Part shown: positions 1,905 to 32,000 of the stretch, in pieces | Layout of the letters: the number at the start of each line of letters is the position of its first letter | How positions within the stretch are numbered: position 1 is the stretch's first letter | NCBI GenBank assembly: GCA_022646745.1 | Contig: CP060262.1 | Coordinates: 900,001 to 932,000 of the forward strand | Source: Planctomycetales bacterium | GTDB taxonomy: Bacteria; 4484-113; JAFGCY01 | DNA: 32,000 nucleotides | Direction of reading: 5' to 3' | Notes under the pieces: model-generated | What the model saw: only the letters and a program-made list of their open reading frames with translations | Told to the model about the DNA's origin: nothing | Database searches by the model: none | Position numbers and translations under genes: made by a program

Positions 1905-3689
1905 TCAGAACTGCACCTTTGCCAGCATTGCATCAAGGTCGCCCGCATCCGGTGTGTCATCCGTGCCCAGAGGCAGGTCCTCGAAAGCAAGGCTGATGTC
2001 CAGCACCCCATTGGCGCTGTAGTTGCTGACCGTGATGTTGTTGTCAAGCAGGTTGAACAGCGCCGGCACACTTTCCAGGGAGAGCGGGTGGAGATTGACA
2101 TCACCCACGACCTGGGACCCACCGCTGATGTACAGCTCGCCCGTCGGACCGGCCAGCAGCGAACCGAAATCGCCGAGGGACAGCAGGGTCCTGTCTCCAC
2201 CGGTGCCGGCCATGTGGAATGAACCCTCTCCGGCACCGTTCCTTACGCGCAGCAGGCTGATACCCGTGTCGTCATCACCGATGCGCGGGGTTTGCAGTGC
2301 ACAGATCGCACCCGTGCTGTCAATCAGCAGGTCGCGCAGGCGGATGCCTGTTTCAGCCGTCGGGTAGCGTAGCTGCTGGTGGCTGCTGAGTTCCATGGAA
2401 CTGTCGAACTGCAGTAACTCAATGTAGTTCTGCAGGATGTCATTCTCGGTCCAGATGTACTGTGATACGAACAGGATTCCACCGCCATGCGCGATCATCC
2501 TGGCGGAACGCGGCCCTGACTTTGAGCTGGTTTCCCAGGAGGTGACGCCCTTGGATGTGCCATCCAGACCGAATTCGGCAACGAGGATCTCCCAGGGTTC
2601 GACGATCCCTCCATCCAGGCGGTCATACACGAAGACACTGTCGTTGGCGACGCAGACCTGGCTGTCCCTGAAGTCGATGTCGGCTCCCCAGGTCCTCCCC
2701 CATTCAAGCGTGTAGTCAGCATTCACACGCAGCAGGTAGATGTCAAATCCGCCGTGGCCGACCAGGTAGAAATTGCCACTGCCATCCATTGCCACCCCGC
2801 TCAGGAAGCTGAGCTGGCAGTCAATTTCCTTGTGAGCCACGATGTTCAAGTCGCCGTCCAGCTGCATGATGTGCGGGTCAGAGCCGTTCATGCCGGTAAT
2901 GAAGATGTTGCCTGAAGCATCAGTGAACATGAAGTCGGCGGTCGTGCCTGATGCGAAGTGCAGGCGCTTGGCAGCCGTGCGCGTCCCGTCGGCAGAGTAG
3001 CGCAGCAGCGTCAGGTAACCAAGCTCACCTGCATCCTCGTAGGTTCGCAGGCCGACAATGATGTTCCCCGCGGCGTCGAAGGTGCTGCATTCCACAACCT
3101 CATGCAGGCTGTCAACACCGAATGTGTGGATCCAGTCCGGCGGTTTCGGACCGCTGACATTCAGCCTGATGCTGGCAACACTCGCCGTGTCCCCTCCGTG
3201 ACAGAGCACGGCCGCAAACGCGTGGTCCAGTCCGCTGGCATAGCGTCCGGCGACCATACCGAGATCGGCCGTGGCATCCGCATCGTAGCTGTCAATGAAG
3301 TTCCAGCGGCCGTTGTCATAATCAGCAATTGCCAGCCAGTACTCACCTGAGAGGGCGCCGAGGTTCACATCGAGCGATTCAACCGGATCGCCGGCGGACA
3401 GGTCAAAGCGGTATATCGCCCAGGCGCTGGCAGAGGAACTGGAGACAAGCTCCAACTCATCCCCGTTGACTGTTGCATCTCCGCCGCTGGCCTGCGCATC
3501 CTTGCCGGGCAGCTCCATTGATGCGCTGGCGCTCCGCGCGTCACCTTGCAGCAGGTCCAGTGCTTCCACTGATGGCAGCAACCCGGTCGGATCGGCTTCA
3601 TTCAGATGGGAATCCATCCCGCGCCCTGTACAGGAAGCTAGGATGAATGCAACCAGGGTCAGTAGAGTGCCTATCCGGATATGTTTCAT
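1905..3689 (-). CDS. Lipoprotein: shared N-terminal module plus SBBP/NHL-like beta-propeller (family B1, 594 aa)
   Basis: Start chosen at internal ATG 3687-3689 (MKHIRIGTLLTLVAFILASC, lipobox LASC) with AAGGA 9 nt upstream. N-module motifs WAIYRF and IADYDNGRWNF. Blade motifs DAAGNIIVG, DASGNIFITG, DGSGNFYLVG. Paralog of 19096-20934. Confidence 0.85.
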   Translation of the reverse strand: MKHIRIGTLLTLVAFILASCTGRGMDSHLNEADPTGLLPSVEALDLLQGDARSASASMELPGKDAQASGGDATVNGDELELVSSSSASAWAIYRFDLSAGDPVESLDVNLGALSGEYWLAIADYDNGRWNFIDSYDADATADLGMVAGRYASGLDHAFAAVLCHGGDTASVASIRLNVSGPKPPDWIHTFGVDSLHEVVECSTFDAAGNIIVGLRTYEDAGELGYLTLLRYSADGTRTAAKRLHFASGTTADFMFTDASGNIFITGMNGSDPHIMQLDGDLNIVAHKEIDCQLSFLSGVAMDGSGNFYLVGHGGFDIYLLRVNADYTLEWGRTWGADIDFRDSQVCVANDSVFVYDRLDGGIVEPWEILVAEFGLDGTSKGVTSWETSSKSGPRSARMIAHGGGILFVSQYIWTENDILQNYIELLQFDSSMELSSHQQLRYPTAETGIRLRDLLIDSTGAICALQTPRIGDDDTGISLLRVRNGAGEGSFHMAGTGGDRTLLSLGDFGSLLAGPTGELYISGGSQVVGDVNLHPLSLESVPALFNLLDNNITVSNYSANGVLDISLAFEDLPLGTDDTPDAGDLDAMLAKVQF

Positions 3690-4011
3690 GGCAAACGGTC
3701 CTTTTCGTGATCGGGTTGTCATGGCTTGCCGGCTGTTCACCGGCTCATCCCAGCAGTATATACCTAACGGGCGCCGCCCCGCAGCGGCCCAACACACCGG
3801 CGATTCCTCCCGGATGCTCTGCTGACTGTGCTGGCCTTATCTCCCGGCAGGCGACAAACCATATGGTGGAAATGGCAGCTGGCGAATCCCTGTGTTTGTT
3901 AAATCGGGCTTAAACTCCGGGGCTACCCTTGCCCGCGTCACTGACCCTCTGACATAATCCGGCCCTATCAATTGCGGCCGGGCCAGTTTGGCTGCTCTAC
4001 CAGGTTGGAAC

Positions 4012-4872
4012 ATGCCAATGTACAGATTCAGATTGACAGCCTTGCTGCTTGTTGCCACGATACTGCTCAGCAGCGGGATCTCCCAGGCCAAGGGCGCTAC
4101 GGAACACCCCGTGATCAAGCCCTTTGGCGGGGCTGAGTTCGTTGACGGGCCAAGCAAGACCACCAGTTTTGATACTTTCGACTTCCTCGTGACGACGGCA
4201 GATGGCAAGAAGACCGACAAGGTCACCAAGAAGGGCAAGTACTGGTACCTGCGCTACCGCATCACGGATGCCTCCGGCCAGCTTGACAAGAGTGTCGGTG
4301 CTGAGGAAATCCTCGAGAACTACCGCAATGCCTGCCTCCAGCGCGGCGGCACGATCCACTACGACTATTCCCGACGCCTGGTGTTCTCACTAACCCGCGA
4401 TGACGGCGGCGAGACCTGGGTCAACCTGCAGGCCAGCGACGGCAACTACGACATCACGATCGTTGACGAGAAGGGGCTGGACCCCACGCTCGTGTTCGGT
4501 GCCGAGGAAATGGCAAGCGAGATCGACATTGACGGCGACGTGGTGGTCTACGGCATCAACTTCGCCGTTGACAGCGACCGCCTGGAGCCCGGCAGCGAGA
4601 AGGTGCTCACCGAGATGGTCAAGCTGATGCGCAATGAGCCGCAGCTGCGCATCGAGATCCAGGGCCATACTGACAACACCGGCAGCGCCGACTACAACCT
4701 GAAGCTTTCGGACCGGCGTGTAGCCACCGTGCGCGAGTTCCTGATCCTGTTCGGCATTGACCCCGCGCGGATGATCTCGAAGGGCTATGGCCTGAGCCGC
4801 CCGGTTGCCACGAATGACACGGAGGAGGGACGTGCGCTCAACCGCCGAGTGGAACTGCACCGCATGAACTGA
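4012..4872 (+). CDS. OmpA-family protein (signal peptide, N-terminal domain of unknown function, C-terminal OmpA-like peptidoglycan-binding domain)
   Basis: Signal peptide MPMYRFRLTALLLVATILLSSGISQA. C-terminal motifs GHTDNTGSADYNLKLSDRRVATV and NRRVEL are typical of OmpA_C. TGA at 4870-4872. ATG at 4012 preferred over the TTG at 3988. Confidence 0.9.
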   Translation: MPMYRFRLTALLLVATILLSSGISQAKGATEHPVIKPFGGAEFVDGPSKTTSFDTFDFLVTTADGKKTDKVTKKGKYWYLRYRITDASGQLDKSVGAEEILENYRNACLQRGGTIHYDYSRRLVFSLTRDDGGETWVNLQASDGNYDITIVDEKGLDPTLVFGAEEMASEIDIDGDVVVYGINFAVDSDRLEPGSEKVLTEMVKLMRNEPQLRIEIQGHTDNTGSADYNLKLSDRRVATVREFLILFGIDPARMISKGYGLSRPVATNDTEEGRALNRRVELHRMN

Positions 4873-4984
4873 GCTGCACTGCAGCCTGCCCAGCGTATGC
4901 CGGGAGAACAGGGAAGCAATGTGGGAAACTGGCAACGGAAGTGTGCCCGGCCGCCAGATGGAGTCCAGGCAACTCTGCAACTTT

Positions 4985-5034
4985 CCCAGCAGGGCCAGCC
5001 CGACAATCAGCGGCAGCAATCGCATCCATTTCAT
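4985..5034 (-). pseudogene. Orphan N-terminal remnant of an A1-like gene (signal peptide only)
   Basis: Encodes MKWMRLLPLIVGLALLG, identical to A1, with the same upstream leader (5035-5073). Similarity stops after codon 17. The open frame then runs antisense into the OmpA gene. Confidence 0.6.
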
Positions 5035-5083
5035 CCCGGATACTATGACGCCTGCGGGCAGCGGATTGGTTCGCCGCAGTGGT

Positions 5084-5743
5084 TCAGGGCTGCATCACCT
5101 GCGGCACTTCTCCCGAGGGATCCAGGGCGACGACCTTCCCCTGCCGCTCCACATCGACAGGCTGGCTGTATTCATCGATACTCAGTTGCCACGCGTATCC
5201 ACGGAAATAGCCGGGACCGACACAGGACTTCGTGGACAGCAGCAGCGTCGGCTTTTCCCTGCCAATCAGGATGATCCGGTAATGGCCATCGCTGGAGTAG
5301 TAATGATGCAGTTCCGCCATTGGCCGCCAGACCCGCCAGCCGCGCCCGGCAAGCTGTGCCTCCAGCCCTGCTGACACTTCACTGAAGGTGCGAGGCGTAT
5401 TGAACCCGATCCGCCAGCTCCTGCATGTATTGCTGACCTGCCCGTCCCTTTCAAGCTCCCGCCAGGGACTGTATTGCGCCTCAATCACATCCGGCAGGCC
5501 GTCGAACCCACGGATCTCCCCTGCGGTGGCATGTGGCGGGGCCAGCACATACTCCAGCGGCCATTCCGGCGGGTAGTGCACCGGGCGATGGGCATGGTGC
5601 CAGTCGCTGCCAAGCGCCAGGCCGCATGCCAGCACAAGCGCAAACAATGACTGTCTTCCCCGCGACCACATCTCCCATGCAGACCAGCCAGTGGCAGCTA
5701 TGTTCCGAATCAGGCTCATTGCCGGGGGATGGCCCGGCAGCAT
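5084..5743 (-). CDS. 'VQYPxDWP' family protein (paralog A2)
   Basis: Motifs PVHYPPEWP, QLAGRGW, EYSQPVDV. Hydrophobic segment SLFALVLACGLALG. Start placed at ATG 5741-5743, 8 nt after the upstream TAG and preceded by GGAGTAGGTGGG. ATG 5719 is also possible. Confidence 0.7.
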   Translation of the reverse strand: MLPGHPPAMSLIRNIAATGWSAWEMWSRGRQSLFALVLACGLALGSDWHHAHRPVHYPPEWPLEYVLAPPHATAGEIRGFDGLPDVIEAQYSPWRELERDGQVSNTCRSWRIGFNTPRTFSEVSAGLEAQLAGRGWRVWRPMAELHHYYSSDGHYRIILIGREKPTLLLSTKSCVGPGYFRGYAWQLSIDEYSQPVDVERQGKVVALDPSGEVPQVMQP

Positions 5744-5751
5744 CCGCCCAC

Positions 5752-6432
5752 CTACTCCAGCACTTCGCCCTTTGCCTGTTCCAGGTAATCCACCGGATCC
5801 CGATACCGCTGGATTTCCAGGTGCCACTTGTACGGCTCGCCCAGGCTGGTCAATTCATCCTTGTGCAGGAAGTAAATGCAGTACATGTAATCCGTGGAGT
5901 AGTAAACGTTGTAGCCGTCCTTGCTGCTGTCCGAGCGGATCCAGCCCCGGCCCGCCAGCTCGCTCTCCAGCATGGCCACCCCATCCGCAGTCTTGCCATC
6001 GTAGCTGTACAACATCACCCAGCTTGTGACCATGTTCTCGTGCGGAGCGCGGCCGACTTCCTTCTCCGGAACGAACCAGACACCCGGCAGCACTTCATTC
6101 TCGGAACCGGGAGTGGATTCAGTGGCGAGTGCCCCCTCGGGTGCCCTGACATACTCCAATGGCCAGTCCGCCGGATACTGCACGGGGACACTGGCCCTGG
6201 CTGGCTTCGGAGGGCTGCCGGCCCGGGACTGCTCGCGCTGGTCAATGATTGACAGCATCGAGGACAGGATGACGGCAATGGCAATGATGCCGCCTGCGAT
6301 GAAGAAGTACGGTATGGCTCCGCGCATCGCCTGACTATGACGCATGACTGCCCGATTGCGAACAGGATGCCGCAGCTCCGTTGTCATGCAACACAGCCGC
6401 CCTGATCCTCGTCCAACTGGCGGGTGCGGCAT
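5752..6432 (-). CDS. 'VQYPxDWP' family protein (paralog A3)
   Basis: Motifs VPVQYPADWP, ELAGRGW, YRDPVDY. TM segment IPYFFIAGGIIAIAVILSSML. TAG at 5752-5754. Start uncertain (ATG 6432, 6387, 6345 or 6327). Confidence 0.7.
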   Translation of the reverse strand: MPHPPVGRGSGRLCCMTTELRHPVRNRAVMRHSQAMRGAIPYFFIAGGIIAIAVILSSMLSIIDQREQSRAGSPPKPARASVPVQYPADWPLEYVRAPEGALATESTPGSENEVLPGVWFVPEKEVGRAPHENMVTSWVMLYSYDGKTADGVAMLESELAGRGWIRSDSSKDGYNVYYSTDYMYCIYFLHKDELTSLGEPYKWHLEIQRYRDPVDYLEQAKGEVLE

Positions 6433-6519
6433 AATTGTTTTTTAGGTTGCAAAGCGTTAGCCGTTGATAGGGAAGCTTCACCGAGTATGTTTGCAATGAA
6501 ATGTTGCGTTATTGAGATG

Positions 6520-6985
6520 TTTCACCACAGAGCCACAGAGGGCACAGAGGAAAATGACAATGGCAATCACACGGGATCCACTTACCGAGAAGATCATTGG
6601 CGCTGCTATCGAAGTCCATCGCGCGGTTGGCCCAGGCCTGCTGGAGCAGATCTATGAGGAATGCATGTGCCGTGAGCTGGCTCTGCAGGAGTTGTCATTC
6701 CAGCGCCAGCTTCCCGTACCACTCCATTACAAGGGAGTGAAGCTGGAAAACAACTTACGGATTGACCTGCTAGTTGAGGACAAGGTGATCATAGAACTGA
6801 AATCTGTCAACAAACTGCTTGGCCTGCATGAGGCCCAGTTACTGAGCTACTTGAAGCTGACTGGCAAACAAAGGGGTCTGCTGATGAACTTCAACTGCGA
6901 ACGTCTGACGGACGGACTGAAGCGGATGGTGCTGTAGATACACGCCCAAGGATATCTCTGTGACCTCTGTGGCTCTGTGGTGAAA
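6520..6985 (+). mobile_element. Non-autonomous cassette: GxxExxY gene bracketed by 30-nt inverted arms made of CACAGAG-type tandem units
   Basis: Left arm 6520-6549 is TTTCACCACAGAGCCACAGAGGGCACAGAG. The reverse complement of 6956-6985 is the same with one mismatch. No transposase is present. Confidence 0.55.
6554..6937 (+). CDS. GxxExxY protein (PD-(D/E)XK nuclease superfamily, 127 aa)
   Basis: Literal G-L-L-E-Q-I-Y motif. D...E-L-K core (RIDLLVEDKVIIELKS). ATG at 6554 preceded by AGAGGA. TAG stop at 6935-6937. Confidence 0.9.
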   Translation: MTMAITRDPLTEKIIGAAIEVHRAVGPGLLEQIYEECMCRELALQELSFQRQLPVPLHYKGVKLENNLRIDLLVEDKVIIELKSVNKLLGLHEAQLLSYLKLTGKQRGLLMNFNCERLTDGLKRMVL

Positions 6986-7128
6986 TCAACTGGTCGCATC
7001 TTGCAAAGTCTCCAGACAGCGGTTTCGACCCATGCATCATGGCTGGGAGTTGCGAATACCGCGCAGCCAGCGCACCATCTGGATGCAGTGAATTCGTTCC
7101 ATCCAATTCCAGCACTGCTATGTTTGTA

Positions 7129-7355
7129 TTCAACCACAGAGCCACAGAGGGCACAGGGGAATATGGCATTGACTATCCCGTCAATCACTGACTGAGAAGT
7201 CAATTGGGCTTCGCGCCAAAGTTCATCAATCCATTTTTGCGGCTGGCCGGTGAAGTATCCTGGGCTTAGATCGGATGAAACGAGCACCAGGTTCACAGTG
7301 GACCTCGTCCAGTGTTAATTCCTCCTCTGTGTACTCTGTGCCTCTGTGGTGTATT
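7129..7355 (+). pseudogene. Decayed second cassette: same inverted arms around a frameshifted, internally deleted GxxExxY remnant
   Basis: Arms at 7129-7159 and 7324-7355 match the intact cassette arms. nt 7186-7207 match 6579-6600 at 17/22 (SLTEKSIGLRAKVH vs PLTEKIIGAAIEVH) but are out of frame with ATG 7163, whose frame hits TGA after 10 codons. Confidence 0.55.
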
Positions 7356-7503
7356 TCAACTGGTCGGGTGCTGAGCGTTGGCTTCAGCCTACGGCTTCAA
7401 CCAATGCAACACGACCCGTGGATGCGGCGTCATACTGCATGGGTGCGGCAAGCCTGGGAATCGCTCAGAAGCGCCTGACTGTACCCGGGGAGACATAGAT
7501 GGT

Positions 7504-7527
7504 ATGCGCCTGCGGCGCATGTATAAT
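7504..7527 (+). promoter_or_regulatory. Candidate promoter for the ABC ATPase gene: perfect TATAAT abutted by a 17-nt palindrome
   Basis: TATAAT at 7522-7527 with TG immediately upstream. ATGCGCC-TGC-GGCGCAT at 7504-7520. No good -35 hexamer. AGGAAG RBS before ATG 7560. Confidence 0.4.
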
Positions 7528-7559
7528 CGTGGGAGTATTCGCCACAGGGGCAGGAAGAC

Positions 7560-8492: not shown

Positions 8493-8495
8493 GCA

Positions 8496-8695
8496 GGTTC
8501 CAGGGAACTGGGAACAGGGATCAGGTTTCTGAAGCGCCATAGAGGCGCTGCGAAGCTACACCATCGAAGTCACTGCAAAGCTGTGCCATCTGCCATTCCC
8601 GCCTATGCGCAGCTATGTCGCGCTGGCGCGTTCCCGCGCTACGCGCTCCTTCTGCCCATCCCGCATCCCCGGTTTCCAGTTCGCAGTTCCCTGTT
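8496..8695. repeat. MITE-like noncoding element bounded by inverted GGGAACT-type heptamer arms
   Basis: Heptamers GGTTCCA GGGAACT GGGAACA GGGATCA at 8496-8523. CAGGGAACTGGGAAC (8501-8515) is the reverse complement of 8679-8693 at 14/15. The interior carries a 52-nt unit (8598-8649) that recurs at 10029-10080. Confidence 0.45.
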
Positions 8696-8754: not shown

Positions 8755-8774
8755 CGTACACTTTGAGGTGAAAT

Positions 8775-9258: not shown

Positions 9259-9307
9259 GAAGAAGTTGTCAGTTCTGAGTTCATAGTGCCATGTTACAGG
9301 TGTGGCG

Positions 9308-9663
9308 GCGCGGCTCGCATGCGCTCGAGTTTATTCGAGGTGGGGTAGCGATCGTTTTGTCAACGCGGAGTCGCGGAGACGCGGAGTAATACAGAGAGCG
9401 GATTAACAGAAAATAGTCCGTAGCGGCGCAGTCCCACTGCGGCAGCACGCGAGTTCTGGCAACAAGGCAAGTTGACACGAGAGAGAGGAATTGCCACCGC
9501 AATTCTCAGTGGCTCAGTGCTACAGTGGTGTATCAGGCGGATTTGCCTACCACTGAGCCACGGAGACACTGAGAAGATGAAGCTTGCCGGGCTCATTGCT
9601 CATTCATCATTGCTCATTGCTTCACAGCATGCTCTCCCAGTCGCACGGAGCGTGCGCCGCTAC
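9308..9663. repeat. Composite repeat, copy 1 (9308-9386 plus 9571-9663), interrupted by a 184-nt insertion (9387-9570)
   Basis: The two halves align to the contiguous copy at 9817-10000. Contains CGCGGAGN x3 (9364-9387) and GCTCATT-type heptamers (9591-9625). Confidence 0.7.
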
Positions 9664-9693
9664 GGATTTCATTTGATGATTCGTGTCTGGAGA

Positions 9694-9722
9694 TTAACCA
9701 CAGAGGCACAGAGCACACAGAG
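9694..9722 (+). repeat. Solo CACAGAG-type cassette arm
   Basis: TTAACCACAGAGGCACAGAGCACACAGAG followed by AATAATGGC (compare AAAATGACAATGGC in the intact cassette). No gene and no partner arm follow. Confidence 0.6.
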
Positions 9723-9816
9723 AATAATGGCTTGAATTCTCCGCGCCTCTCTTCAATCTCCCCGACTCCGCGTTGAAGAGAACCAGCCTGGCGAGCACGT
9801 TGTCACCCGCGCGACT

Positions 9817-10000
9817 GCGCGGCTCGCATGCGCTCGAGTAGATTCGAGCCAAGTATGCGATGTTTTTGTCAACGCGAAGGCGCGAAGACGCGAAGGGAGA
9901 TGAAGTTCGCACGGCTCATTGCTCATTCATCATTGCTCATCCATCATCGCTCATTGCTTCACGGCATGCATTCCCAGTCGCACGGAGCGTGCGCCGCTAC
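9817..10000. repeat. Composite repeat, copy 2 (contiguous)
   Basis: Contains CGCGAAGN x3 (9873-9896) and seven GCTCATT-type heptamers (9914-9962, two more units than copy 1). Shared tail CCCAGTCGCACGGAGCGTGCGCCGCTAC. Confidence 0.7.
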
Positions 10001-10080
10001 TGCCTTCTGCCTCTTGCCTTCTGCCCTTCCCGCCAATGCGCAGCTATGTCACACTGGCGCGTTCATGCGCTACGCGCTCC
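10000..10080. repeat. CTGCCTT heptamers (10000-10027) plus the 52-nt unit (10029-10080) repeated from 8598-8649
   Basis: CTGCCTT CTGCCTC TTGCCTT CTGCCCT. The 52-nt unit differs from 8598-8649 at 5 positions. Confidence 0.7.
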
Positions 10081-23453: not shown

Positions 23454-23534
23454 ATTCACTCCAGAATGCAACATCAGCAGATTGCCCACAGCGCCTCATG
23501 CGCCCGGTGGCCACTTCAGCAGCCTGCTTCAATT

Positions 23535-24719
23535 CTAGCGTGAGTCGGCGTCCTGTGCAGCTGTCGCCGTTCCATCGGCATTGAGCGTGGCCAGCTGCTC
23601 GTCAACCATGCGCGTGGTCAGCTTGCGTGCGCCGTCGTCACCGCAATTGACAACGGCGGCCGCCGCACAGTGCCGGGTATGGCTCAGCACCGTGTGGATG
23701 TAGAAGGTGCCGGCGCTGCCGTCATGCGTGGAGATCCGTTCATGCAGCGGGCCCTGCGGGGTTTCGACGTCGCGCTCCAGCACGATCCAGCCGCAGGCGT
23801 AATGCCCGCTGGGCTCATGCAGGAAGGCGAAACTATCCGCGCTGAGCAGGCTGGGGCTGCCGGACAGGCCGTCGATATGCAGCTGCAGGAACTTCGCGTA
23901 CTCGCCGAGCGGCATGCTCAGGTCACCGGCCGGCGCGATCTCCGGCGGCATGGAGTAGCCCTGCAGGCGGCCATAGGGGAACACCTTGCTGCCGCGGATG
24001 GTGTAGCCGGTCGGCTCTGCCGCGTCGTGGTCCAGCGGCCAGCCCAGCTGCACCTGCATCCCGAGCGGATCAAACAGCCGCTGCTGCATCAGCTCCTCCC
24101 AGGACTGCCCGCTGCGCTCCTCGGCCATCGCACTGGCAACGCAGTATCCGGCATTGCTGTAGAGGTACAGCCCACGCCGGCCGGCTGGCTCCTGCGCCAG
24201 CAGCCACTGCGCGAAGGACAGCCGGCGCTCGCGGCTGCCGCCCTCCCGCTCAGGCACGGCCTTCCACTCGGAGCCGGCTGTGAAGGCCTGGATCCCGCTG
24301 CGGTGCGTGAGCAGCTCATGCAGGCTGGCTTCGCGCATCGCCTCATTGAAGGTGGCGGACTGCTCCGGCCAGACCTCGCTTACCGTGGTGTCCCAGTCGA
24401 GCAGGCCTTCCTCAACGAGCGCCGCGATCATCGTGGCGGTCATCGCCTTGGTGTTGGAACCGATGTGGAAGTAGCTGTCCGCCGTGACCTGGACCGCACT
24501 GTCCTTTGCCAACGGTCCCTTGACTGAAATTTCCGCTGCCCCATTGGCCAGCAGCAGGCTGCCGATTGCCAGGCTGTCCGCATCGAGCTGCAGCTCAGCA
24601 GCACGGGTGCTGATGCTGGCAACAACCAGCACCACGACACTGAGCGTGATGATCGCCGGCCACAGCCAGCGCGGCCGCTTGCGCCTGCGTCCACTGCTAT
24701 CCACTGCCTGGTCCATCAC
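23535..24719 (-). CDS. Membrane-anchored serine hydrolase, beta-lactamase/transpeptidase-like fold (394 aa)
   Basis: N-terminal TM WLWPAIITLSVVVLVVASI. S-x-x-K reads as S-N-T-K (HIGSNTKAMT). Y-x-N reads as YSNAGY. GTG 24719 or ATG 24716 as start. TAG at 23535-23537. Confidence 0.9.
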   Translation of the reverse strand: MMDQAVDSSGRRRKRPRWLWPAIITLSVVVLVVASISTRAAELQLDADSLAIGSLLLANGAAEISVKGPLAKDSAVQVTADSYFHIGSNTKAMTATMIAALVEEGLLDWDTTVSEVWPEQSATFNEAMREASLHELLTHRSGIQAFTAGSEWKAVPEREGGSRERRLSFAQWLLAQEPAGRRGLYLYSNAGYCVASAMAEERSGQSWEELMQQRLFDPLGMQVQLGWPLDHDAAEPTGYTIRGSKVFPYGRLQGYSMPPEIAPAGDLSMPLGEYAKFLQLHIDGLSGSPSLLSADSFAFLHEPSGHYACGWIVLERDVETPQGPLHERISTHDGSAGTFYIHTVLSHTRHCAAAAVVNCGDDGARKLTTRMVDEQLATLNADGTATAAQDADSR

Positions 24720-24761
24720 TCCAGCATAGCGCCGGACTTGAGCTGCCTGCTGCAGCGGGCA

Positions 24762-27137
24762 CTAATCCAGCGGGCTGAGCTGGATCCAGTCCAGGCGCAG
24801 CAGCTGGCGGTCGGCTCCCCCGTCGTAGGTGCTGTTGGACAGCACGGCAATGCCGCCGTTGACCTCGACGATGCTGACCGCCTCTGGGCAGCCGGTGATG
24901 TGGTCGCCGGGGTAGCCGGCCTTGAAGCCCGTGAACAGGATGTCATTCACACCGGAGTGGATCTCCGGGTTACGGCGGCCGAGCCAGGCATCCGGCAGGC
25001 GGTAGGGCAGCATCAGCAGCGCGGCATCCTCCGCCGTGCTGGAGCGGGCGTAGACCGGCTTGCCGGCGACTGATGACAGCGCAAGATGCGTCACGCCGTG
25101 GTCCAGGATGTTGTCAGCGAAGAACTCCTCCCAGTCGCTGAAGATCGCCGGGAAGGGGCTGGTGGCGCGGTACAGCTTGGTGATCACGTAGACCTTGCCG
25201 CTCTCCTTCACCATGCAGGCCAGCTGCAGTTCGCCATCCAGCACCTGCAGGCCGATGTCCGCCAGCATGTCACGCACGTGGGTGGTCTGCACCTGGTGTG
25301 AGACCCAGTCCTGCGAACCCACCGGACTGAGGTCTGTGGAGAACATGCAATGGGCCGCCAGCAGGTTGCCACCGGGCAGCTGGTTGTCAAAGGCGATTGC
25401 GATCCGGCCGTTGTACTCAGCCATTGCGAAGTTGTGCGGCACGTATTCGCCCTGGGCAAGCACCACGATGTCGCTGACCGTCCAGCTGCCACCGACCCCA
25501 AGTGGGCCGGAGCGCTGCGCCAGGCGCCAGCTGGTCTGCTTGGTGTTGGCGTTGTAGTGCATGTAGCTCACAGCCGGGCGGCCATCGATGATGGCGAAGG
25601 CCAGGTCTCCGGTGGGCTTGATCAGTTCTATGGTCTCAACGATCCAGTCCTCATCCGACTCAGGCAGCGCCTTTGTGGAGAAGGCCATGTACACACCCTG
25701 GTCCAGCACGGTTCCTCCGCTGTTCTCCCAGGCCACGGCAGGCAGCCCGTTCTGTTCCAGCACCACGCTGTCACTGGGCAGAGTGGCCCAGTCGATGCGG
25801 CTGAGGGGCGAATAACCGGTCAGGCTGCCGGGCAGGGCGCGGAACATCAGGGCATTGTTGCCCGTGTCGTTGTATGCGATGCCGAGCGTATCGTTGGCAA
25901 TCAGGGCCATCCCGCCGTGGAACAGCTCGCCGGCCGGTGCCTCAAGGATGTCGCTGCCATCGCGGTTGCCTCGGAAGCCCGTATCGCTGGCAGGCACAAG
26001 GCCGGTCTCACCTGCCTCATAGGCGTAGACGTCGTAGGCGTGCGCGGCGTAGTCAGTCACGGTGTAGTCGTAGTAGGTGAAGATGCCATATTGATTGGTC
26101 AGGATCACTTCATCCTCGATTTCCTCTCCATCACGGTAGATGCTGAAGCGCGCATTATGCCCAAATCCGGCCTCGGGCCAGTGTAGCTCCACGTGGTCCT
26201 CATGCAGGCCATCGCTGGCATCCATCCAGAGCGGGGTTGGCAGCGAGGCGAAGCCCGTGTCCGGCAGGGAATAGGGCGACCAGTGCCCATCTAGGGTGTA
26301 GCGCATGCGGTATTCGTAGATCACGCCGGGCACGCAGGGCACCGGGGACAGCGAGTTGTGCAGGTAGCTGTACTCACCCTTGGTTTCATACAGCAGGGCA
26401 AACTGGCTGCCCTCCACCGTTGTGTCACGGAACTCGACCTGCACCGGGCTGACCGGGAAGTCCAGGTCCTCCCAGCGCAGCTGCACTGAGTATGGGCTGC
26501 CACCGTCCGCCGCCCGGAACCAACCGGGGGCCGGCGGCGCGTCCGAGTCATTGCTGACAACCACGTTGTCAACCGTCAGCCCGGAGCCGCTGCCACGCAT
26601 GAGGATGGCGATGTAGACATTGAATGCCGGGCTGAGGTTGCGCCCGAGGTCCACGAAGCCCTGCATGTTGAATACATAGGGATCACCGGACTGCACAGTG
26701 CGATGGAAGTCCCAGCGGCCGCTGGCATAGTCGGCGACCGCGAAGTAGATGTCCTGGCCGGGCTGCTGCTGGCTGAGCACGAATTCCAGCTTGCCGATCT
26801 CCGCATCCGGATGGATGCCCGGCAGGCGGTAGACCACGAAGCGGCTGTCATCCGCATTGACCGGCTGCAGCAGCAGGCTGTGGTCCTTGTTCTCCACTCC
26901 ATTGGTGAGGAAGCAGTCGCGCCCTTCCAGCAGGTAGCCGAAGGTCTCGCTGGCATTGCGCAGCGCTTCATCGGAGAACACATCCTGCGGAATGGCACCG
27001 AGGCTGTCAGCCTGCGGCAGGCCTCCAGTGGTGTTGTCAACAGGCTGCAGCGGGCTGCTGCCGGAACCGTTGCCGGAACATGAAGCGGCCAGCACTGTCA
27101 GCATGGCCAGGCAGGAAAGAAGAATCACACGTTGCAT
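24762..27137 (-). CDS. Lipoprotein, family C4 (791 aa)
   Basis: ATG 27135-27137 (MQRVILLSCLAMLTVLAASC) with GGGGGA 6 nt upstream. RFVVYRL and VADYASGRWDF. DASDGLHEDHVELHW...IYRDG. Blades QNGLPAVAW, IDGRPAVSY, YNGRIAIAF. TAG at 24762-24764. Confidence 0.9.
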   Translation of the reverse strand: MQRVILLSCLAMLTVLAASCSGNGSGSSPLQPVDNTTGGLPQADSLGAIPQDVFSDEALRNASETFGYLLEGRDCFLTNGVENKDHSLLLQPVNADDSRFVVYRLPGIHPDAEIGKLEFVLSQQQPGQDIYFAVADYASGRWDFHRTVQSGDPYVFNMQGFVDLGRNLSPAFNVYIAILMRGSGSGLTVDNVVVSNDSDAPPAPGWFRAADGGSPYSVQLRWEDLDFPVSPVQVEFRDTTVEGSQFALLYETKGEYSYLHNSLSPVPCVPGVIYEYRMRYTLDGHWSPYSLPDTGFASLPTPLWMDASDGLHEDHVELHWPEAGFGHNARFSIYRDGEEIEDEVILTNQYGIFTYYDYTVTDYAAHAYDVYAYEAGETGLVPASDTGFRGNRDGSDILEAPAGELFHGGMALIANDTLGIAYNDTGNNALMFRALPGSLTGYSPLSRIDWATLPSDSVVLEQNGLPAVAWENSGGTVLDQGVYMAFSTKALPESDEDWIVETIELIKPTGDLAFAIIDGRPAVSYMHYNANTKQTSWRLAQRSGPLGVGGSWTVSDIVVLAQGEYVPHNFAMAEYNGRIAIAFDNQLPGGNLLAAHCMFSTDLSPVGSQDWVSHQVQTTHVRDMLADIGLQVLDGELQLACMVKESGKVYVITKLYRATSPFPAIFSDWEEFFADNILDHGVTHLALSSVAGKPVYARSSTAEDAALLMLPYRLPDAWLGRRNPEIHSGVNDILFTGFKAGYPGDHITGCPEAVSIVEVNGGIAVLSNSTYDGGADRQLLRLDWIQLSPLD

Positions 27138-27169
27138 CACACGTCCCCCAATAGAAAGGTGATAGCTGG

Positions 27170-27198
27170 ATTGTAACCCGCCGGGCCGCTGTTGTCGA
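27170..27198 (-). promoter_or_regulatory. Candidate sigma70-type promoter for 24762-27137
   Basis: On the minus strand: TCGACA (27193-27198), 17-nt spacer, TACAAT (27170-27175). Confidence 0.4.
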
Positions 27199-27276
27199 GG
27201 TAATCACTTGCAAGCCAATCCGGATGATCAATGCTACCTACGGGCGAAACAGCCGGAACACTTCCAGCCCTTGGGG

Positions 27277-28710
27277 CTATTGATCAATGCCCTGATGGTA
27301 GTTGCGCTCATCGTACTGCCCGATGTGGTAGCCGCGCAGCTTCTCCAGGAAGGGCTCGAAATGCAGTTCGCTGAACCTGCGCCGGGCACTGTAGTACTCT
27401 GCCAGCGCCGGATAGCGGTGCTGCGGGTACTTCCAGCTCCAGCGGCGCAGTACGCCAAGTTCAGGCTCCTCGAAGCAGCCGTTCGAGTACATCCGCCAGG
27501 CCAGCGGCTTGAATTCATTCTGGCGGTAGCTGTACTTCAGCTCCGGGTTGCCCTCCAGCCAGCCGACATACAGCTCATACCAGGCATCGGGATGCTCGAA
27601 GCGGGCCTGCTCCTGCCACTGCAGCTGCGCGGCCAGCGCCCCGTCCAGCAGGCCGGACTGGTAGTACAGCTGCTGGCGGCCCGGCCCATCTAAGCCATCG
27701 CCGGCGTCCACCGTCATGATCTGCAGGGCTACATTTGCCAGCAGGCAGCCGTGGCTGATCTCCGTGATGCTGCCGGTGTTCACCGGGCGCAGGGCGAACT
27801 GGTAGCAGGCGTCGAATGAGCGTTCCATGCCGATGTCGGGGCTGACAACAAGCAGCTCCTTCATCACATCCTTCATCTCGAGGTAACTCCAGTTGTCAAA
27901 CACGAGGTGCTGCTGCACCTCGAGGATGCTGCCGGCGAGGATCGGGTTGCCAATGTCACCGCTGGCCAGGCGCGGCTCGATGAATGACAGCGGGAATGGC
28001 AGGCGCGGCTGGCAGGGCAGCTGGTTGGCCTGCTCCAGCAGTTCCACCAGTTCGCTGTCAACTCCGTATGTGCTGAGCGCGATGAACTTGTCGTAGTACG
28101 GCCAGGCGCTGCCGGGATTGGCGGCGATGGCACTGTCCAGCAGCTCCAGCTGGTCCTGCTCAAGGGCCCGGTTGCGGTCAATTGAGTCCTGCCGGCCACT
28201 GGCCTGCTCCAGCAGGTGCGAATGGTGGCGGTACATGCTCGTGTATCTGTGGACCGCCAGCAGGTCGAGCAGGTGACCGTCGGCAACGCCTGTATCGAGG
28301 GCCGTCGCCAGGTGCTGCACCGCCGGGTCCGAGAGATAGCTGTCGGCGGGCTCTGGCTGGTCCCTGTTGTACAGCCTCCGCGGCAGCCTCCCTGCAAGTG
28401 CCGCCTCATTGAAATAGCGCAGTTCCCAGTAGCGCGGGTCCTCACCGAAGTCCTGCTCCCAGCTTGCGAGCACGCCGTCGTCAATCGCGCAGTACAGGCG
28501 GGAGGGAGGCCGGTCAGTGCGCAGGGTCAGGCTGGCTATCCCCACGCCCCAGCGCTTCCTGGCCAGCCAGGCTGACTGGTAGCGGTCGTACAGTGCATCG
28601 CCGGTCGGCACCACGCGGGTGATCCACAACAGGCGCATCAGTGGCAGGAGGAGGAGCAGGGCCAGCAGGACCTGCAGCAGGCGGCGATGGCGACGGATGA
28701 AGTCCTTCAC
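27277..28710 (-). CDS. Membrane-anchored helical protein, family D3 (477 aa), function unknown
   Basis: GTG start at 28708-28710 overlaps the upstream TGA (GTGA). TM LLQVLLALLLLLPLM. Shares TGDALYDRYQ, DPRYWELR, FPLSF...GNPILAGSIL and MKDVMKEL with 30016-31350 and 29211-30029. Confidence 0.8.
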   Translation of the reverse strand: MKDFIRRHRRLLQVLLALLLLLPLMRLLWITRVVPTGDALYDRYQSAWLARKRWGVGIASLTLRTDRPPSRLYCAIDDGVLASWEQDFGEDPRYWELRYFNEAALAGRLPRRLYNRDQPEPADSYLSDPAVQHLATALDTGVADGHLLDLLAVHRYTSMYRHHSHLLEQASGRQDSIDRNRALEQDQLELLDSAIAANPGSAWPYYDKFIALSTYGVDSELVELLEQANQLPCQPRLPFPLSFIEPRLASGDIGNPILAGSILEVQQHLVFDNWSYLEMKDVMKELLVVSPDIGMERSFDACYQFALRPVNTGSITEISHGCLLANVALQIMTVDAGDGLDGPGRQQLYYQSGLLDGALAAQLQWQEQARFEHPDAWYELYVGWLEGNPELKYSYRQNEFKPLAWRMYSNGCFEEPELGVLRRWSWKYPQHRYPALAEYYSARRRFSELHFEPFLEKLRGYHIGQYDERNYHQGIDQ

Positions 28711-29141
28711 TCCGCAGGCTCCATCCCCACGTACAGCTCCGGGTGCTCGAAGTCGAATGTGGCGAGGTGCCGGAGCATCTGCCGGCAGCGTGGCACTTCG
28801 TTGTCAAGCAACCAGCGGTTGAGCGCGTACTCCTGTTCATAGCGGCCATACATCGACAGGTCGTTTATCTGGCCCAGCAGGATGCCGATTCCCTCCGCCA
28901 GACCGACCTCTGGATATGGTTCTTCCGGTACCCAGGGATAGAGTTCTGCATCATGCAGTATCGCCCAGTACTGGTTGTCCGCAAGGTACTGCGCCAGATC
29001 GGGGTCACTGGCCGCAAGCCGCGCATGAATTCCCTCGCAGTACCCGTCAAGCCGCTCAAAGTCCTCAAGCAAGCGCGAATAGCCCTGCGGGCGGGACTGA
29101 TCCTGCCAGATGGACAGATCGGCAAGCACCACCCGGGACAT
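28707..29141 (-). CDS. C-terminal fragment of interrupted family D2 paralog (144 aa if expressed from ATG 29141)
   Basis: Aligns to the C-terminal third of 30016-31350 (GIHARLAASDPDLAQYL, EYALNRWLLDNEVPRCRQML, HLATFDFEHPELYVGM). In the same frame as 29211-30029. No SD before ATG 29141. Confidence 0.6.
   Translation of the reverse strand: MSRVVLADLSIWQDQSRPQGYSRLLEDFERLDGYCEGIHARLAASDPDLAQYLADNQYWAILHDAELYPWVPEEPYPEVGLAEGIGILLGQINDLSMYGRYEQEYALNRWLLDNEVPRCRQMLRHLATFDFEHPELYVGMEPAE
28721..28769. repeat. 49-nt tract identical to 30033-30081
   Basis: CCATCCCCACGTACAGCTCCGGGTGCTCGAAGTCGAATGTGGCGAGGTG is present at both sites. Flanking paralogous sequence is only about three-quarters identical by eye. 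Confidence 0.9.
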
Positions 29142-29210
29142 GATGTTGGCAATCTGCGGCGTGCAGCAGAGCCAGGCTGTCCCTGCGGATTCCCGCTGGC
29201 GAAGCTCGCA

Positions 29211-30029
29211 CTACGAAAGGACCGTCATTGCCTCCATCAGGTCCACATCCGCACCGGCAATCAGCTCCTTGTACCGGTCCTTGAAGGTGAGGTACTCGTA
29301 GATCCCGCCGTCAGACAGCATGCTGCCTGTTGCCAGGATCGAACCGGCCACTGCCGGGTTGCCGACCGGATCGCCTGCCAGCATCCGCCGGCGCACGAAG
29401 GAAAGTGGGTACAGGTCCACAGCTGCCGAGGCCGACAGGCTGTCGCTCCTGCGCATCATATCCAGCCAGCGCTGGTCCATTCCGTACAGGGCCAGGTGGA
29501 TGGCTGCCTCGGAATACACCCAGCGGCTTTCGGGAAAGCGTGCAGCATAACTGGAGGTCAGCTCATCCGTGCGCGCATCCTCATCGCTGGCGGACAGCGT
29601 TGCGTCGGCACGGATGTCACGCAGCTCCCGGCCCAGCAGCTCGCGTGCCGCAGCGGGGCCGGCGTCAGCGCATTCCAATGCACGCCGCAGGGTTGGCCGG
29701 TCAGGCAGCCTGCTGCCATTTGCTGCGGCAGCCACAACGGCACGCAGTTCCCAGTAGTCACTGCGCTGGCCGAACTCCGGCTCCCAGGCTTCGACTGCAT
29801 TCAGCGAGGGAGCCCATAGCCAGACCATGTTGCCGGCCCAGGTGGGCTCACCTGAATAGAGGTCGTCACGGTGCTCGTCCAGCACCGCCTGCTGCAGGCG
29901 GTCATACAGCGGGTCACCGGTCGGGATTGGCTCACCGGGCAGCTGCGCAAAGGCGACTGCCGGCCTAAGCAGCATGGCAAGCAGAGTGAGCACCGTTGCC
30001 AGAATCCGCATGAGCTTAGTTTTCATCAT
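29211..30029 (-). CDS. N-terminal fragment of interrupted family D2 paralog (272 aa, ends at in-frame TAG 29211-29213)
   Basis: ATGATG at 30024-30029 overlaps the upstream gene by 14 nt. Signal peptide MMKTKLMRILATVLTLLAMLLRPAVAFA. TGDPLYDRLQ, SDYWELR, ECADAGP, YPLSF...GNPAVAGSIL and FKDRYKEL match the 30016-31350 product. Confidence 0.65.
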   Translation of the reverse strand: MMKTKLMRILATVLTLLAMLLRPAVAFAQLPGEPIPTGDPLYDRLQQAVLDEHRDDLYSGEPTWAGNMVWLWAPSLNAVEAWEPEFGQRSDYWELRAVVAAAANGSRLPDRPTLRRALECADAGPAAARELLGRELRDIRADATLSASDEDARTDELTSSYAARFPESRWVYSEAAIHLALYGMDQRWLDMMRRSDSLSASAAVDLYPLSFVRRRMLAGDPVGNPAVAGSILATGSMLSDGGIYEYLTFKDRYKELIAGADVDLMEAMTVLS

Positions 30030-31350
30030 CAGCCATCCCCACGTACAGCTCCGGGTGCTCGAAGTCGAATGTGGCGAGGTGTTCCAGCATCTCCCTGCAG
30101 CGCGGCATTTCGTTGTCAATCAGATAGTGGTTGAGGGCGTATTCATCCAGAGCCTGTTGCTTGAGCAGGTTGCCATTACTTTGGCTTCCCGCCAGTGCCA
30201 TATAGTCCTGCAATTCAGCTGCTGCGTTGCTGGCTGAAGCACCCCGCAGGTTGTACCAGGTGAAGGCCTCGTTCATGTACGCTGCGAGCCGTGGATCATA
30301 CGCAGCGACACGGGCGTGTATGCCCGAACGCCATGCATCGTAGGCCTGCCAGTCCGCCAGCCAGGCCTGCATTCCCTTTACCTGTAGGCTGCCTGGCTCC
30401 CAGTCCGTATGAAGAACCACGATTTCCGACAGAACCTCCTGCAATACTATCGGTGCCGTCAACTGCAGGGGATCATCGCTGTCAATCCGCGGGCGCAGTT
30501 CCCGCCGCATCAGAGCTGACAATGCCCGGGCCATGCCCAGTTCACTGCCCGCCAGCTCAAGTTCCTTGTATATGTCCTTGAGGCGATTATGGTTGCCATA
30601 TTCATAAGTGCTCTGGTAGCTTCGCAGCATTAGCAGTGATCCAGCGATCATTGGATCCAACACCGGTCCAGCTGGGGATCCAGCCCCGACCGCGATCGCC
30701 AGGGGGAACAGCTCGCCACTCGCCAGACCATCCAGCGAGTTTCCTCGTTCCAGCATTTCGACATACTGCGCATCCAGGCCATACCAGCTGAGGTGGTCTG
30801 CTGCGATGTAGCAGATGGCGGCATTGTCAGGCAGACGCGTGCGGTAGCGCTCGATGATCTCCGCCGTGGCAGCATCTTCCTGCCAGGCATCAAGCTCCAG
30901 CGATTCATCGTAACGGATTGCGTGCAGTTCCAGCTTCATTGCGCGTGCCAGCACCTCAGGACCGGCATCATTGCATTCCGTTGCCCGCTGCAGGAAACCA
31001 GCCTCACTGCCCTGCTCATCGACACCGAGCCTGGCCAGACTGGCCCGCAGGCACCAGTAGTCGCTGCGCCCGCTGAATTCGGCTTCCCAGCTGATGACTG
31101 TTTTTAGGTCAGGAGCCCAGGGCCACTGGGACGTCCCCATCAGGTTGGCGAATCTGTCATGTACTGGCTGGCAGCTGGCGGCCAGCACCGCCCGCTGCAT
31201 GCGGTCGATTAAGGGATCCCCGCTGGGCTGAATCCTTTGCTGCGAGCGCAGCAGGAAACCACCGAAGATGATCAGGCTGAGGATGCCGCCCAGAACCAGC
31301 AAGGCGAGTGCGATCCACCTGCCTGTCCTGCCTGTCTGGATCTGCTTCAT
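30016..31350 (-). CDS. Membrane-anchored helical protein, family D1 (444 aa), function unknown
   Basis: ATG 31348-31350 with GGGGGA upstream. TM WIALALLVLGGILSLIIFGGFLL. Full-length template for the split D2 pair. TAA at 30016-30018. Confidence 0.85.
   Translation of the reverse strand: MKQIQTGRTGRWIALALLVLGGILSLIIFGGFLLRSQQRIQPSGDPLIDRMQRAVLAASCQPVHDRFANLMGTSQWPWAPDLKTVISWEAEFSGRSDYWCLRASLARLGVDEQGSEAGFLQRATECNDAGPEVLARAMKLELHAIRYDESLELDAWQEDAATAEIIERYRTRLPDNAAICYIAADHLSWYGLDAQYVEMLERGNSLDGLASGELFPLAIAVGAGSPAGPVLDPMIAGSLLMLRSYQSTYEYGNHNRLKDIYKELELAGSELGMARALSALMRRELRPRIDSDDPLQLTAPIVLQEVLSEIVVLHTDWEPGSLQVKGMQAWLADWQAYDAWRSGIHARVAAYDPRLAAYMNEAFTWYNLRGASASNAAAELQDYMALAGSQSNGNLLKQQALDEYALNHYLIDNEMPRCREMLEHLATFDFEHPELYVGMADDEN
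30033..30081. repeat. 49-nt tract identical to 28721-28769
   Basis: See 28721-28769. Both copies encode HLATFDFEHPELYVGM and sit immediately upstream of the next gene's start codon. Confidence 0.9.
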
Positions 31351-31359
31351 GTCGTCCCC

Positions 31360-31375
31360 CGGGGCAGCTGCCCCG
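31360..31375. promoter_or_regulatory. Perfect 16-nt palindrome 10 nt upstream of the D1 start codon
   Basis: CGGGGCAGCTGCCCCG, adjacent to and overlapping the GGGGGA RBS of the minus-strand gene. Confidence 0.3.
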
Positions 31376-31477
31376 CATACCTATTATTACATTGCCTCGC
31401 GGACAGCAGTTTCATGACACCGCATGTCACCTTCTTCCGCCCCTGCGGCACACACCACCCGCGCCGGCAGGGTTAGG

Positions 31478-31489
31478 ATTTCATGAAAT
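31478..31489. promoter_or_regulatory. Perfect 12-nt palindrome upstream of the 31511 gene
   Basis: ATTTCATGAAAT, 22 nt before GTG 31511. Confidence 0.25.
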
Positions 31490-31510
31490 TGCGATTACGG
31501 AGTCTGCACA

Positions 31511-32000
31511 GTGCTGAATGCCATCCGTCCCGCCGCGCTTGCGGCCATGTCCATGTGCGTGCTGCTGTCCGCATCCTGTGCGGGAAACGGGAACCGCCCG
31601 GCGCAGTCGCTGCAGCAGGCCCAGCAGCCGGCTGCCGGGCAGGCGGGTACACCCGAGGCCGGTCAACCTGATCCGGCATTTTCCCTGCCCTCCCTGAACA
31701 GCCTGAAGCTGGAGAATGCGCCCGTACGCAGCGGCTCATATGTGGATTCCGACCTGCTGCATGAGGGGGTGGAGTATGAAGCGGGCCTGCCGCATTCACA
31801 TGTGACGCAGGACGGGGCATCACTGATGTTCTCCCCCGACCTGTCGAACCCGGGCAATCCCGGCATCGCATACGCAATCTACCGCTACACGGTGCCGGAC
31901 TATGACCGCGCGCCGGAATTCCGCATCACATACGACCAGACCTTCGAATTCAGCAACTTCTGGCTGGCGCTGGCAAACTGGGAAACGCGGCGTTGGGACC
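31511..32000 (+). CDS. Lipoprotein with the shared N-module (family B/C member, 3' end beyond window)
   Basis: Not in the supplied ORF track because it has no stop in the window. GTG 31511 preceded by ACGGAG at 8 nt. VLNAIRPAALAAMSMCVLLSASC lipobox. Hand translation gives AYAIYRY and LALANWETRRWD. Open to nt 32000. Confidence 0.8.
   Translation, partial: MLNAIRPAALAAMSMCVLLSASCAGNGNRPAQSLQQAQQPAAGQAGTPEAGQPDPAFSLPSLNSLKLENAPVRSGSYVDSDLLHEGVEYEAGLPHSHVTQDGASLMFSPDLSNPGNPGIAYAIYRYTVPDYDRAPEFRITYDQTFEFSNFWLALANWETRRWD

Follow-up and report, generated by a model that had tools for sequence, protein, structure and literature searches.

The sequence analysed here, called the window below, is a stretch of 32,000 nucleotides (nt) from a Planctomycetales bacterium (contig CP060262.1 of GenBank assembly GCA_022646745.1, positions 900,001 to 932,000 of the forward strand), with a G+C content of ~62%. 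The lineage is uncultured and originates from saline activated sludge. The window contains eight large lipoprotein genes, interspersed with unrelated genes (Table 1). Seven of the encoded proteins (B1, B2 and C1 to «C5») have the same N-terminal module, referred to as the N-module, joined to different C-terminal parts; the eighth, referred to as the PKD protein, contains six PKD domains. A lipobox-like motif, L/A-[AS]-[AGS]-C, is found in the seven module proteins and in the PKD protein. The order lipobox signal peptide, low-complexity linker and module, described in a previous sequence-only reading of this DNA, is seen in all seven module proteins. From these features we infer that they are lipidated and located in the envelope.

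The module had been recognised by two motifs, i.e., [YF]A[IV]Y[RQ] and, ~30 amino acids (aa) further on, [AS][DN][YFW]xxG[RK]W[DNQ]. Each of them is present once, in the stated order and spacing, in all seven proteins and both are absent from the PKD protein. The seven N-terminal regions can be aligned over ~135 columns, the module being ~140 residues long. BLASTP comparison of B with C modules gives 35-42 bits over 74-118 residues, with an identity of only 17-28%. A profile made from 46 module sequences matches exactly the seven open reading frames (ORFs) concerned, with E-values from 5e-12 (truncated copy) to 3e-38, and no other six-frame ORF (>=100 aa) of the window; the same search of the window ORFs finds no N-module in the PKD protein. 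The pairwise scores and the specificity of the profile indicate homology rather than a coincidence of motifs. The seven lipoproteins thus have one homologous N-terminal module in common.

Pfam and NCBIfam contain no named family for this module. On the module region, Pfam has no match in the seven proteins of the window (E<=0.1) or in 10 diverse homologs, and the 46 isolated module sequences give, at E<=1, only nine unrelated single matches, i.e., chance level. No carbohydrate-binding module (CBM) family is found among the Pfam matches of the 46 modules or of the seven proteins at these respective thresholds. NCBIfam gives nothing on the module, and the best E-value of the PDB sequence searches with both module profiles is 0.26, which is also chance level. 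The sequence-only reading was thus right not to assign the module to a named domain, and no existing Pfam domain accounts for it.

AlphaFold2 (46-sequence alignment) predicts residues 59-202 of C1 as an eleven-strand all-beta domain, with a predicted local distance difference test score (pLDDT) of 93.7 and a predicted template modelling score (pTM) of 0.87. The comparison of this model with the PDB by Foldseek gives 105 matches at E<=1e-3, among which the leading ones are: (i) the CBM6 of an agarase, which is the best (2cdp/2cdo, E 3e-7 to 7e-6, template modelling score (TM) 0.5-0.62); (ii) domain III of the Cry11, Cry4 and Cry1 toxins (TM ~0.6, up to 0.63 for Cry11); (iii) CBM35, CBM65, CBM32, CBM4 and CBM16, together with the Kex2 P-domain and a phloem lectin, PP2. 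The identity of the module to these fold relatives is 11-14%. The leading matches all belong to the galactose-binding-domain-like jelly-roll class. The module is predicted to be a beta jelly roll of this class, i.e., a two-sheet sandwich of ~130-150 residues, and its model can be superimposed on the CBM6 fold with moderate similarity. Having no sequence match and a galactose-binding-like fold, it would therefore represent a new sequence family in a very common, mostly carbohydrate-binding fold class. The structural check proposed with the sequence-only reading has thus given a confident, CBM6-like jelly roll.

An exhaustive HMMER search with a seven-sequence profile against 1.84 billion cluster representatives (clusters at 50% identity) retrieves the module in 914 representatives at E<=1e-3 and in 69 at E<=1e-10. 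Position and lipobox statistics were calculated for the best 150 of the 914 module proteins. There is one module per protein and its start is at residue 62 (median; 10th-90th percentile 35-81). A lipobox-like motif is located ahead of the module in 108 of the 134 proteins that have a complete N-terminus; it is typically L-[AS]-[AGS]-C, with Gly/Ser at +2 and +3. The spacer from Cys to module is rich in Ala, Pro, Gly and Ser and has a median length of 35 residues (~25-40 in the window proteins). Directly before the first strand, the strict pattern LPxLP..R is present in 62 of 151 proteins, versus 4.5 expected from shuffles.

The signature of the family, based on 119 sequences, is characterized by R2 and G14 (97%), [WYF]-A-[IV]-Y-x-F, [WY]-x-[AG]-[LIV]-[AS]-[DN]-[YF]-x-x-G-R-W-x-F (Trp being invariant) and S-P-x-G-N-x-Y-[VI]-A-V. 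Conservation extends over core strands and loop motifs (G14, SP.GN) alike, and in strand beta5 ([WYF]-A-[IV]-Y-x-F) it concerns both faces.

The C-terminal parts differ between families. In the full-length model of C1 (19 sequences, pLDDT 83.5, pTM 0.76), the signal peptide and tether are disordered (residues 1-37 and 52-62) and are followed by the jelly roll (~63-200), two beta sandwiches (~210-295 and ~300-385) and 28 strands at 389-777 that form a seven-bladed propeller. Foldseek matches of the full-length model are fibronectin type III (FN3) tandems (integrin beta4, LAR and contactins, probability 1.0), the FN3-plus-propeller receptors ROS1 and Sevenless, and the propeller lyases of polysaccharide lyase (PL) families PL11 (YesW/YesX) and PL42 (FoRham1). 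FN3 membership is based on structure, since Pfam fn3 reaches only E 0.012 on this region of the C family; a protein 93% identical to a C-family member is named «fibronectin type III domain-containing» by NCBI. The composition of the C family as previously read, i.e., module, two FN3-like domains and propeller, is confirmed by this model. The similarities of the C-family propeller are generic and do not establish an enzymatic function.

For the B family, the proposed SBBP-like propeller finds support at the level of the repeat, as judged from profile matches. The B2 propeller is matched by NCBIfam Lepto_SBBP_lipo (E 6.1e-10), by the delta-60 repeat (6.9e-5) and, at 0.022 only, by Pfam SBBP; that of B1 is matched weakly by Lepto_SBBP_lipo (E 0.0046) and not by Pfam SBBP. 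All the Lepto_SBBP_lipo scores are far below the curated cut-off. The SBBP-type C-termini (~1905-1950 in B1, 19096-19140 in B2, and homologs P0012 and P0032) display a conserved «G..DD(A/T)L(L/V)M.L» strand, which may close the propeller or act as a C-terminal signal.

«C5», cut by the end of the window, had been placed in family C. Its counterpart P0153 (714 aa), 99% identical over the 163 residues visible in the window, is made of the module, a PKD domain and an SBBP-type propeller (Lepto_SBBP_lipo E 4e-11); «C5» is thus B-like instead. A protein of 714 aa with PKD_4 is encoded by L002:7696-9840, and PKD_4 is found in P0012 too. P0153 and another module protein, P0061, are located on one contig.

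The partner domains were counted in 67 homologs: PKD in 22, PQQ_2/BamB-like and related propellers in 7, CarboxypepD_reg in 6, fn3 in 5, PPC in 2, cytochrome c in 2 and SBBP in 2 (E down to 1.9e-6), besides others. This diversity means that the whole family, and not this locus only, has its domains shuffled behind a constant N-terminal module. The claim that one module is joined to varied C-terminal architectures is thus borne out, and much more widely than in the window, i.e., over 914 representatives.

The PKD protein is transcribed divergently from C1. Its six PKD domains are matched by Pfam PKD_4 (4.4e-48) and its C-terminal repeat region contains the NGRPAV blade motif. The sequence-only reading had attributed the propeller of the C family to this protein too, and this link is weak: the blade motif is above chance, with 16.9 bits against a blade-unit hidden Markov model (HMM) of C1-C4 that none of 300 shuffles reaches (maximum 6.9), whereas the match of the C-terminal 349 residues to the whole-propeller HMM of the C family is weak (7.5 bits). 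The alignment is limited to a short strand pair, h-h-h-[DN]G[RK]P-A-h-x-Y, in 2-3 blades. It is plausible from these sequence matches, but unproven, that the PKD protein and C1-C4 have propellers of the same family. The divergent PKD/C1 gene pair is kept in a distant relative (L004), the C1 ortholog of which is 56% identical. A 763-aa gene adjoining the PKD gene in L004 was considered as a C2 ortholog and rejected, as it has no match to the HMM of the module or to that of the propeller.

Other features of the PKD protein were noted by eye. Its N-terminal part (12776-13800, aa ~1-340) contains, after a beta-rich segment, a duplicated calcium-loop-like motif, GDYDQNSEVNVADLAPLG / DGDRNGELNIADLAPIG, of pattern D-x-[DN]-x-[NS]-[GE]-x-[VI]-N-[VI]-A-D-L-A-P-[LI]-G. 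The motif resembles dockerin, and the N-terminal part looks cohesin-like plus dockerin-like, by eye only; Pfam gives nothing there at E<=1. The C-terminus (15490-16540) contains five non-canonical Asp-box-like repeats (..SGTEW.., ..SGFDW.., ..TGATW.. and, twice, ..ADGSSWG..) that alternate with the NGRPAV strand motif; they have no BNR match in Pfam.

Table 1. Lipoprotein genes of the window and their domains (positions in nt of the window; aa, residues of the protein).
Feature	Position	Strand	Description
B1 lipoprotein	1905-3689	(-)	594 aa; lipobox LASC (Cys20), tether, N-module, SBBP-like propeller region
B1 N-module	3138-3539	(-)	aa 51-184; module HMM 122.9 bits
C1 lipoprotein	10103-12460	(-)	785 aa; lipobox LAGC, disordered tether, N-module, 2 FN3-like, 7-bladed propeller (predicted)
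C1 domains	11852-12286 (N-module)		N-module aa 59-203; FN3-like ~aa 210-385; beta-propeller ~aa 389-777
PKD lipoprotein	12776-16540	(+)	~1254 aa from MSNPIVRF; longest ORF start 12533
C2 lipoprotein	16547-18895	(-)	782 aa; N-module, FN3 x2, propeller
C2 N-module	18287-18718	(-)	aa 60-203
B2 lipoprotein	19096-20934	(-)	612 aa; N-module, SBBP-type propeller
B2 N-module	20383-20778	(-)	aa 53-184; module HMM 119.6 bits
C3 lipoprotein	21090-23453	(-)	~787 aa from MRLALST; N-module nt 22857-23285, FN3 x2, propeller
C4 lipoprotein	24762-27137	(-)	791 aa; N-module nt 26532-26963, FN3 x2, propeller; module HMM 116.7 bits
«C5» 5' part	31511->32000	(+)	cut by window end; lipobox SASC, long Gln/Ala/Pro tether
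«C5» partial N-module	31727-31999	(+)	first 60% of module; module HMM 38.3 bits on partial domain

B1 is 99% identical to P0006 (594 aa) and C4 is identical to P0001. The cluster of module genes extends past the right end of the window, with at least one more gene on L002 (4387-6690(+), 767 aa, E 3.5e-30). Also beyond the window, L002:1893-4190(-) encodes a protein of 765 aa that lacks the module and contains CarboxypepD_reg and a repeat rich in Pro and Glu.

The neighbours of the cluster in the window are beta-lactamase-family hydrolases, an OmpA-like protein, an ABC ATPase and proteins without assignment. Genes for beta-lactamase-family serine hydrolases are located in or beside the cluster (37-948(+) and 23535-24719(-), Pfam E 1.6e-44 and 2.2e-35, respectively), and one is also found near the PKD/C1-like pair of the distant relative (L004:1-367); a functional association with the lipoprotein cluster may exist. 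Three adjoining proteins without Pfam match (27277-28710(-), 29211-30119(-) and 30016-31350(-)) look paralogous by eye, each having «P(T/S)GD(P/A)LYDR(L/M/Y)Q» after a hydrophobic N-terminal segment. The proteins of two adjacent overlapping ORFs (5084-5827(-) and 5752-6432(-)), also without Pfam match, are probably paralogs since in both a hydrophobic segment precedes the motif «YP(P/A)(E/D)WPLEYV.AP». Direct and inverted copies of a short element, ACCACAGAGCCACAGAGGGCACAGAGG, are present at 6520-6568, 6956-6986, 7128-7177, 7325-7357 and 9690-9741; the copies flank a PDDEXK_3 (GxxExxY-type) gene (6512-6937) and occupy intergenic DNA upstream of C1. Direct repeats of 45-95 nt are also located at 9292-10080.

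The sequence-only reading had proposed to compare paralogs by the ratio of nonsynonymous to synonymous substitution rates (dN/dS). As the paralogs have only 24-31% amino-acid identity among each other, such a comparison is not meaningful, and strain orthologs on L001 and L002 (91-97% nucleotide identity) were used instead, with the Nei-Gojobori method; C2 was left out, its ortholog being cut by the end of L001. The values for whole genes are 0.14 (C1), 0.20 (C4), 0.19 (PKD protein) and 0.10 (5' part of C3), and those for neighbouring unrelated genes range from 0.06 to 0.30. Per module, the values for C1 and C4 are, respectively, 0.13 and 0.08 (N-module), 0.09 and 0.25 (FN3 pair), 0.15 and 0.15 (propeller); the three parts of the PKD protein give 0.08-0.20. 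Only the segments of signal peptide and tether reach 0.26-0.33, on 5-10 substitutions. Every folded module is thus shown to be under purifying selection.

Closer counterparts exist in other genomes for C1 (P0004, 56%), C2 (P0002, 58%), C3 (P0007, 51%) and B2 (P0013, 44%); those of B1 are weak (25-28%), and C4 has no closer counterpart among the 152 retrieved proteins. As the paralogs differ this much while four of them have 44-58%-identical orthologs elsewhere, the set is old and stable. The seven paralogs are old, individually conserved and presumably functionally differentiated, rather than fast-evolving. Compared with L002, the window is 100% identical at 28718-32000 and only 94.7% identical at 22409-28635, and at that junction L002 is longer by ~2.5 kb, which include a gene for 752 aa. 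This step of identity and the insertion reflect either recombination between strains or an assembly chimera.

The reading that we favour, with middling confidence and on the basis of the predicted fold, is that the N-module is an unnamed CBM6-like jelly-roll family, the obligatory first folded domain of a large class of envelope lipoproteins in little-known, uncultured bacteria, and likely glycan-binding. As the sequences suggest, the proteins would be exported and would receive their lipid anchor at the Cys of the lipobox; next would come a flexible tether of ~25-40 residues, rich in Ala, Pro, Gly and Ser, the conserved end of which (LPxLP..R) leads into the jelly roll next to the membrane. 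Judging from its fold class only, the jelly roll would most likely bind a glycan, either an external polysaccharide or an envelope polymer of the cell itself, and would provide an attachment or targeting function next to the membrane, common to all members. The variable C-terminal bodies (SBBP-type or novel seven-bladed propellers, FN3, PKD, CarboxypepD_reg, PPC, cytochrome c) would provide different activities. Several observations weigh against glycan binding: (i) the fold class is no proof of a lectin function, since the TM to real CBMs is only 0.5-0.6 and the identity 11-14%; (ii) the same class includes non-lectins, e.g., the Kex2 P-domain and Cry toxin domain III; (iii) classical CBMs occupy variable positions, next to glycoside hydrolases or lyases, whereas the module is strictly N-terminal; (iv) the carbohydrate-active catalytic neighbour of a CBM6 is not found in the 67 homologs, in which the only glycoside-hydrolase-associated partner is GH85_C, in a single protein, and no catalytic family of polysaccharide lyases occurs; (v) no polysaccharide-utilisation genes are found among the window genes.

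The main rival to the lectin reading, less probable in our opinion but to be taken seriously, is that the module is a protein-docking «handle» which, together with LPxLP..R, is recognised by a common envelope partner, for instance a membrane receptor or a machine for sorting or surface export; the module would therefore always come first after the lipid anchor, whatever follows. Its strict N-terminal position (median residue 62, 10th-90th percentile 35-81), the conserved linear motif just upstream, the conservation of both faces of strand beta5 and the extreme diversity of the partners, almost none of which are carbohydrate-active catalytic domains, all fit such a handle. Nevertheless, no partner candidate is consistently adjacent in the few loci seen, the nearest solved folds are mostly carbohydrate binders, and no lipoprotein sorting system is known to use a jelly-roll domain. 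Position, motif and partners thus favour the handle while fold relatives favour the lectin. A bolder and rather unlikely version is that tether, LPxLP..R and jelly roll constitute a lineage-specific «display handle», i.e., a new lipoprotein sorting or anchoring device of candidate phyla, read by an envelope partner or polymer. It would be analogous to the lipoprotein export signal of Bacteroidota and to Slam substrates, though structurally unrelated to either; if it were true, any C-terminal domain could be mounted on the cell surface.

A role of the module as a pro-domain or intramolecular chaperone at the N-terminus, which aids the folding of the propeller and is then removed, is very improbable. 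Prodomain-type structures do occur among the Foldseek matches of lower rank (TKS propeptide complex, BMP10 prodomain, Kex2 P-domain), but behind the module there is neither a protease domain nor a conserved cleavage motif, the folds to which it is joined are very diverse, a small cytochrome c among them, and purifying selection on it is as strong as on the rest of the protein. The sequence-only reading had seen in the locus a diversifying cell-surface repertoire of adhesins, in which quick shuffling of modules would vary the binding specificity. Seven module genes (eight with the flank) within ~40 kb, with at least three architectures, and the differences between strains near the cluster (2.5-kb indel, mosaic identity) agree with this idea, and adhesins often contain PKD, FN3 and propeller domains. 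However, the dN/dS of C1, C4 and the parts of the PKD protein does not exceed that of neighbouring genes, the genes themselves show no repeats, cassettes or signals of recombination, and the mosaic identity may be an assembly artefact. With folded modules at 0.08-0.25, and most paralogs old, stable and having their own orthologs (44-58% identity, against 24-31% among paralogs), the term diversifying is not supported, and the adhesin repertoire is improbable. A chance or compositional match of motifs without homology, for which the low B-C identity might be invoked, is already refuted by the pairwise scores, by a profile limited to the seven ORFs, by 914 homologs in the database in which position and signature of the module are the same, and by the common fold predicted with confidence; its probability is practically nil.

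The favoured reading, that of a CBM6-like first domain, can be set against known systems. The module is like CBM6/CBM35 (e.g., the agarase Aga16B CBM6, PDB 2cdp/2cdo) in its size of ~130-140 residues and in its predicted beta jelly-roll topology class. It differs by the 11-14% identity, by the absence of any Pfam CBM model on the 46 modules (E<=1) and by its strictly N-terminal position behind a lipobox, not appended to a glycoside hydrolase. With Cry toxin domain III, the Kex2/furin P-domain, CBM32, CBM4 and the PP2 phloem lectin, it has in common the predicted fold class (TM up to 0.63, Cry11 domain III) but no sequence relationship, and domain context and organisms are other ones.

Surface glycan-binding lipoproteins of Bacteroidota are similar in architecture. 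SusE/SusF-like proteins and surface glycan-binding proteins (SGBPs) have a lipid anchor, a tether, a membrane-near N-terminal beta-sandwich and variable distal binding or catalytic domains; in lipoprotein sialidases, an N-terminal CBM is ahead of a beta-propeller. The B and C families resemble these sialidases in domain order, in outline only. However, the N-terminal domain of the Bacteroidota proteins is Ig-like or of a named CBM family, their genes belong to SusC/D loci (no SusC/D gene is present in the window) and the phyla are different; the likeness is thus architectural and not established as homology. The bodies of B2 and P0153, also lipoproteins, match the Leptospira LipL53-type SBBP lipoproteins (NCBIfam NF047494, E 6e-10 and 4e-11), but with 38-42 bits, far below the family cut-off of 400, so that only the type of repeat is shared; the match is confined to the propellers, outside the N-module. 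Lastly, FN3 plus propeller of the C family aligns with the PL11 (YesW/YesX) and PL42 (FoRham1, 7esk) lyases, with a target-normalised TM of 0.59-0.60 for 7esk and ~610 aligned columns for PL11 2zux/2zuy; the identity is 10-13%, any 7- or 8-bladed propeller scores alike, and the C family has no Pfam lyase match.

None of these results overturns current views: modular lipoproteins with a beta-sandwich as first domain are a familiar theme, and the find is real but modest. It consists of a domain family missed by current libraries, with ~900 clusters and a confidently predicted fold, and offers a first entry point to the many «hypothetical» envelope lipoproteins of uncultured wastewater and sediment phyla. 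Should the module be glycan-binding or envelope-anchoring, it would explain how a varied toolkit is mounted on the surface of these bacteria, and would allow the annotation of hundreds of proteins.

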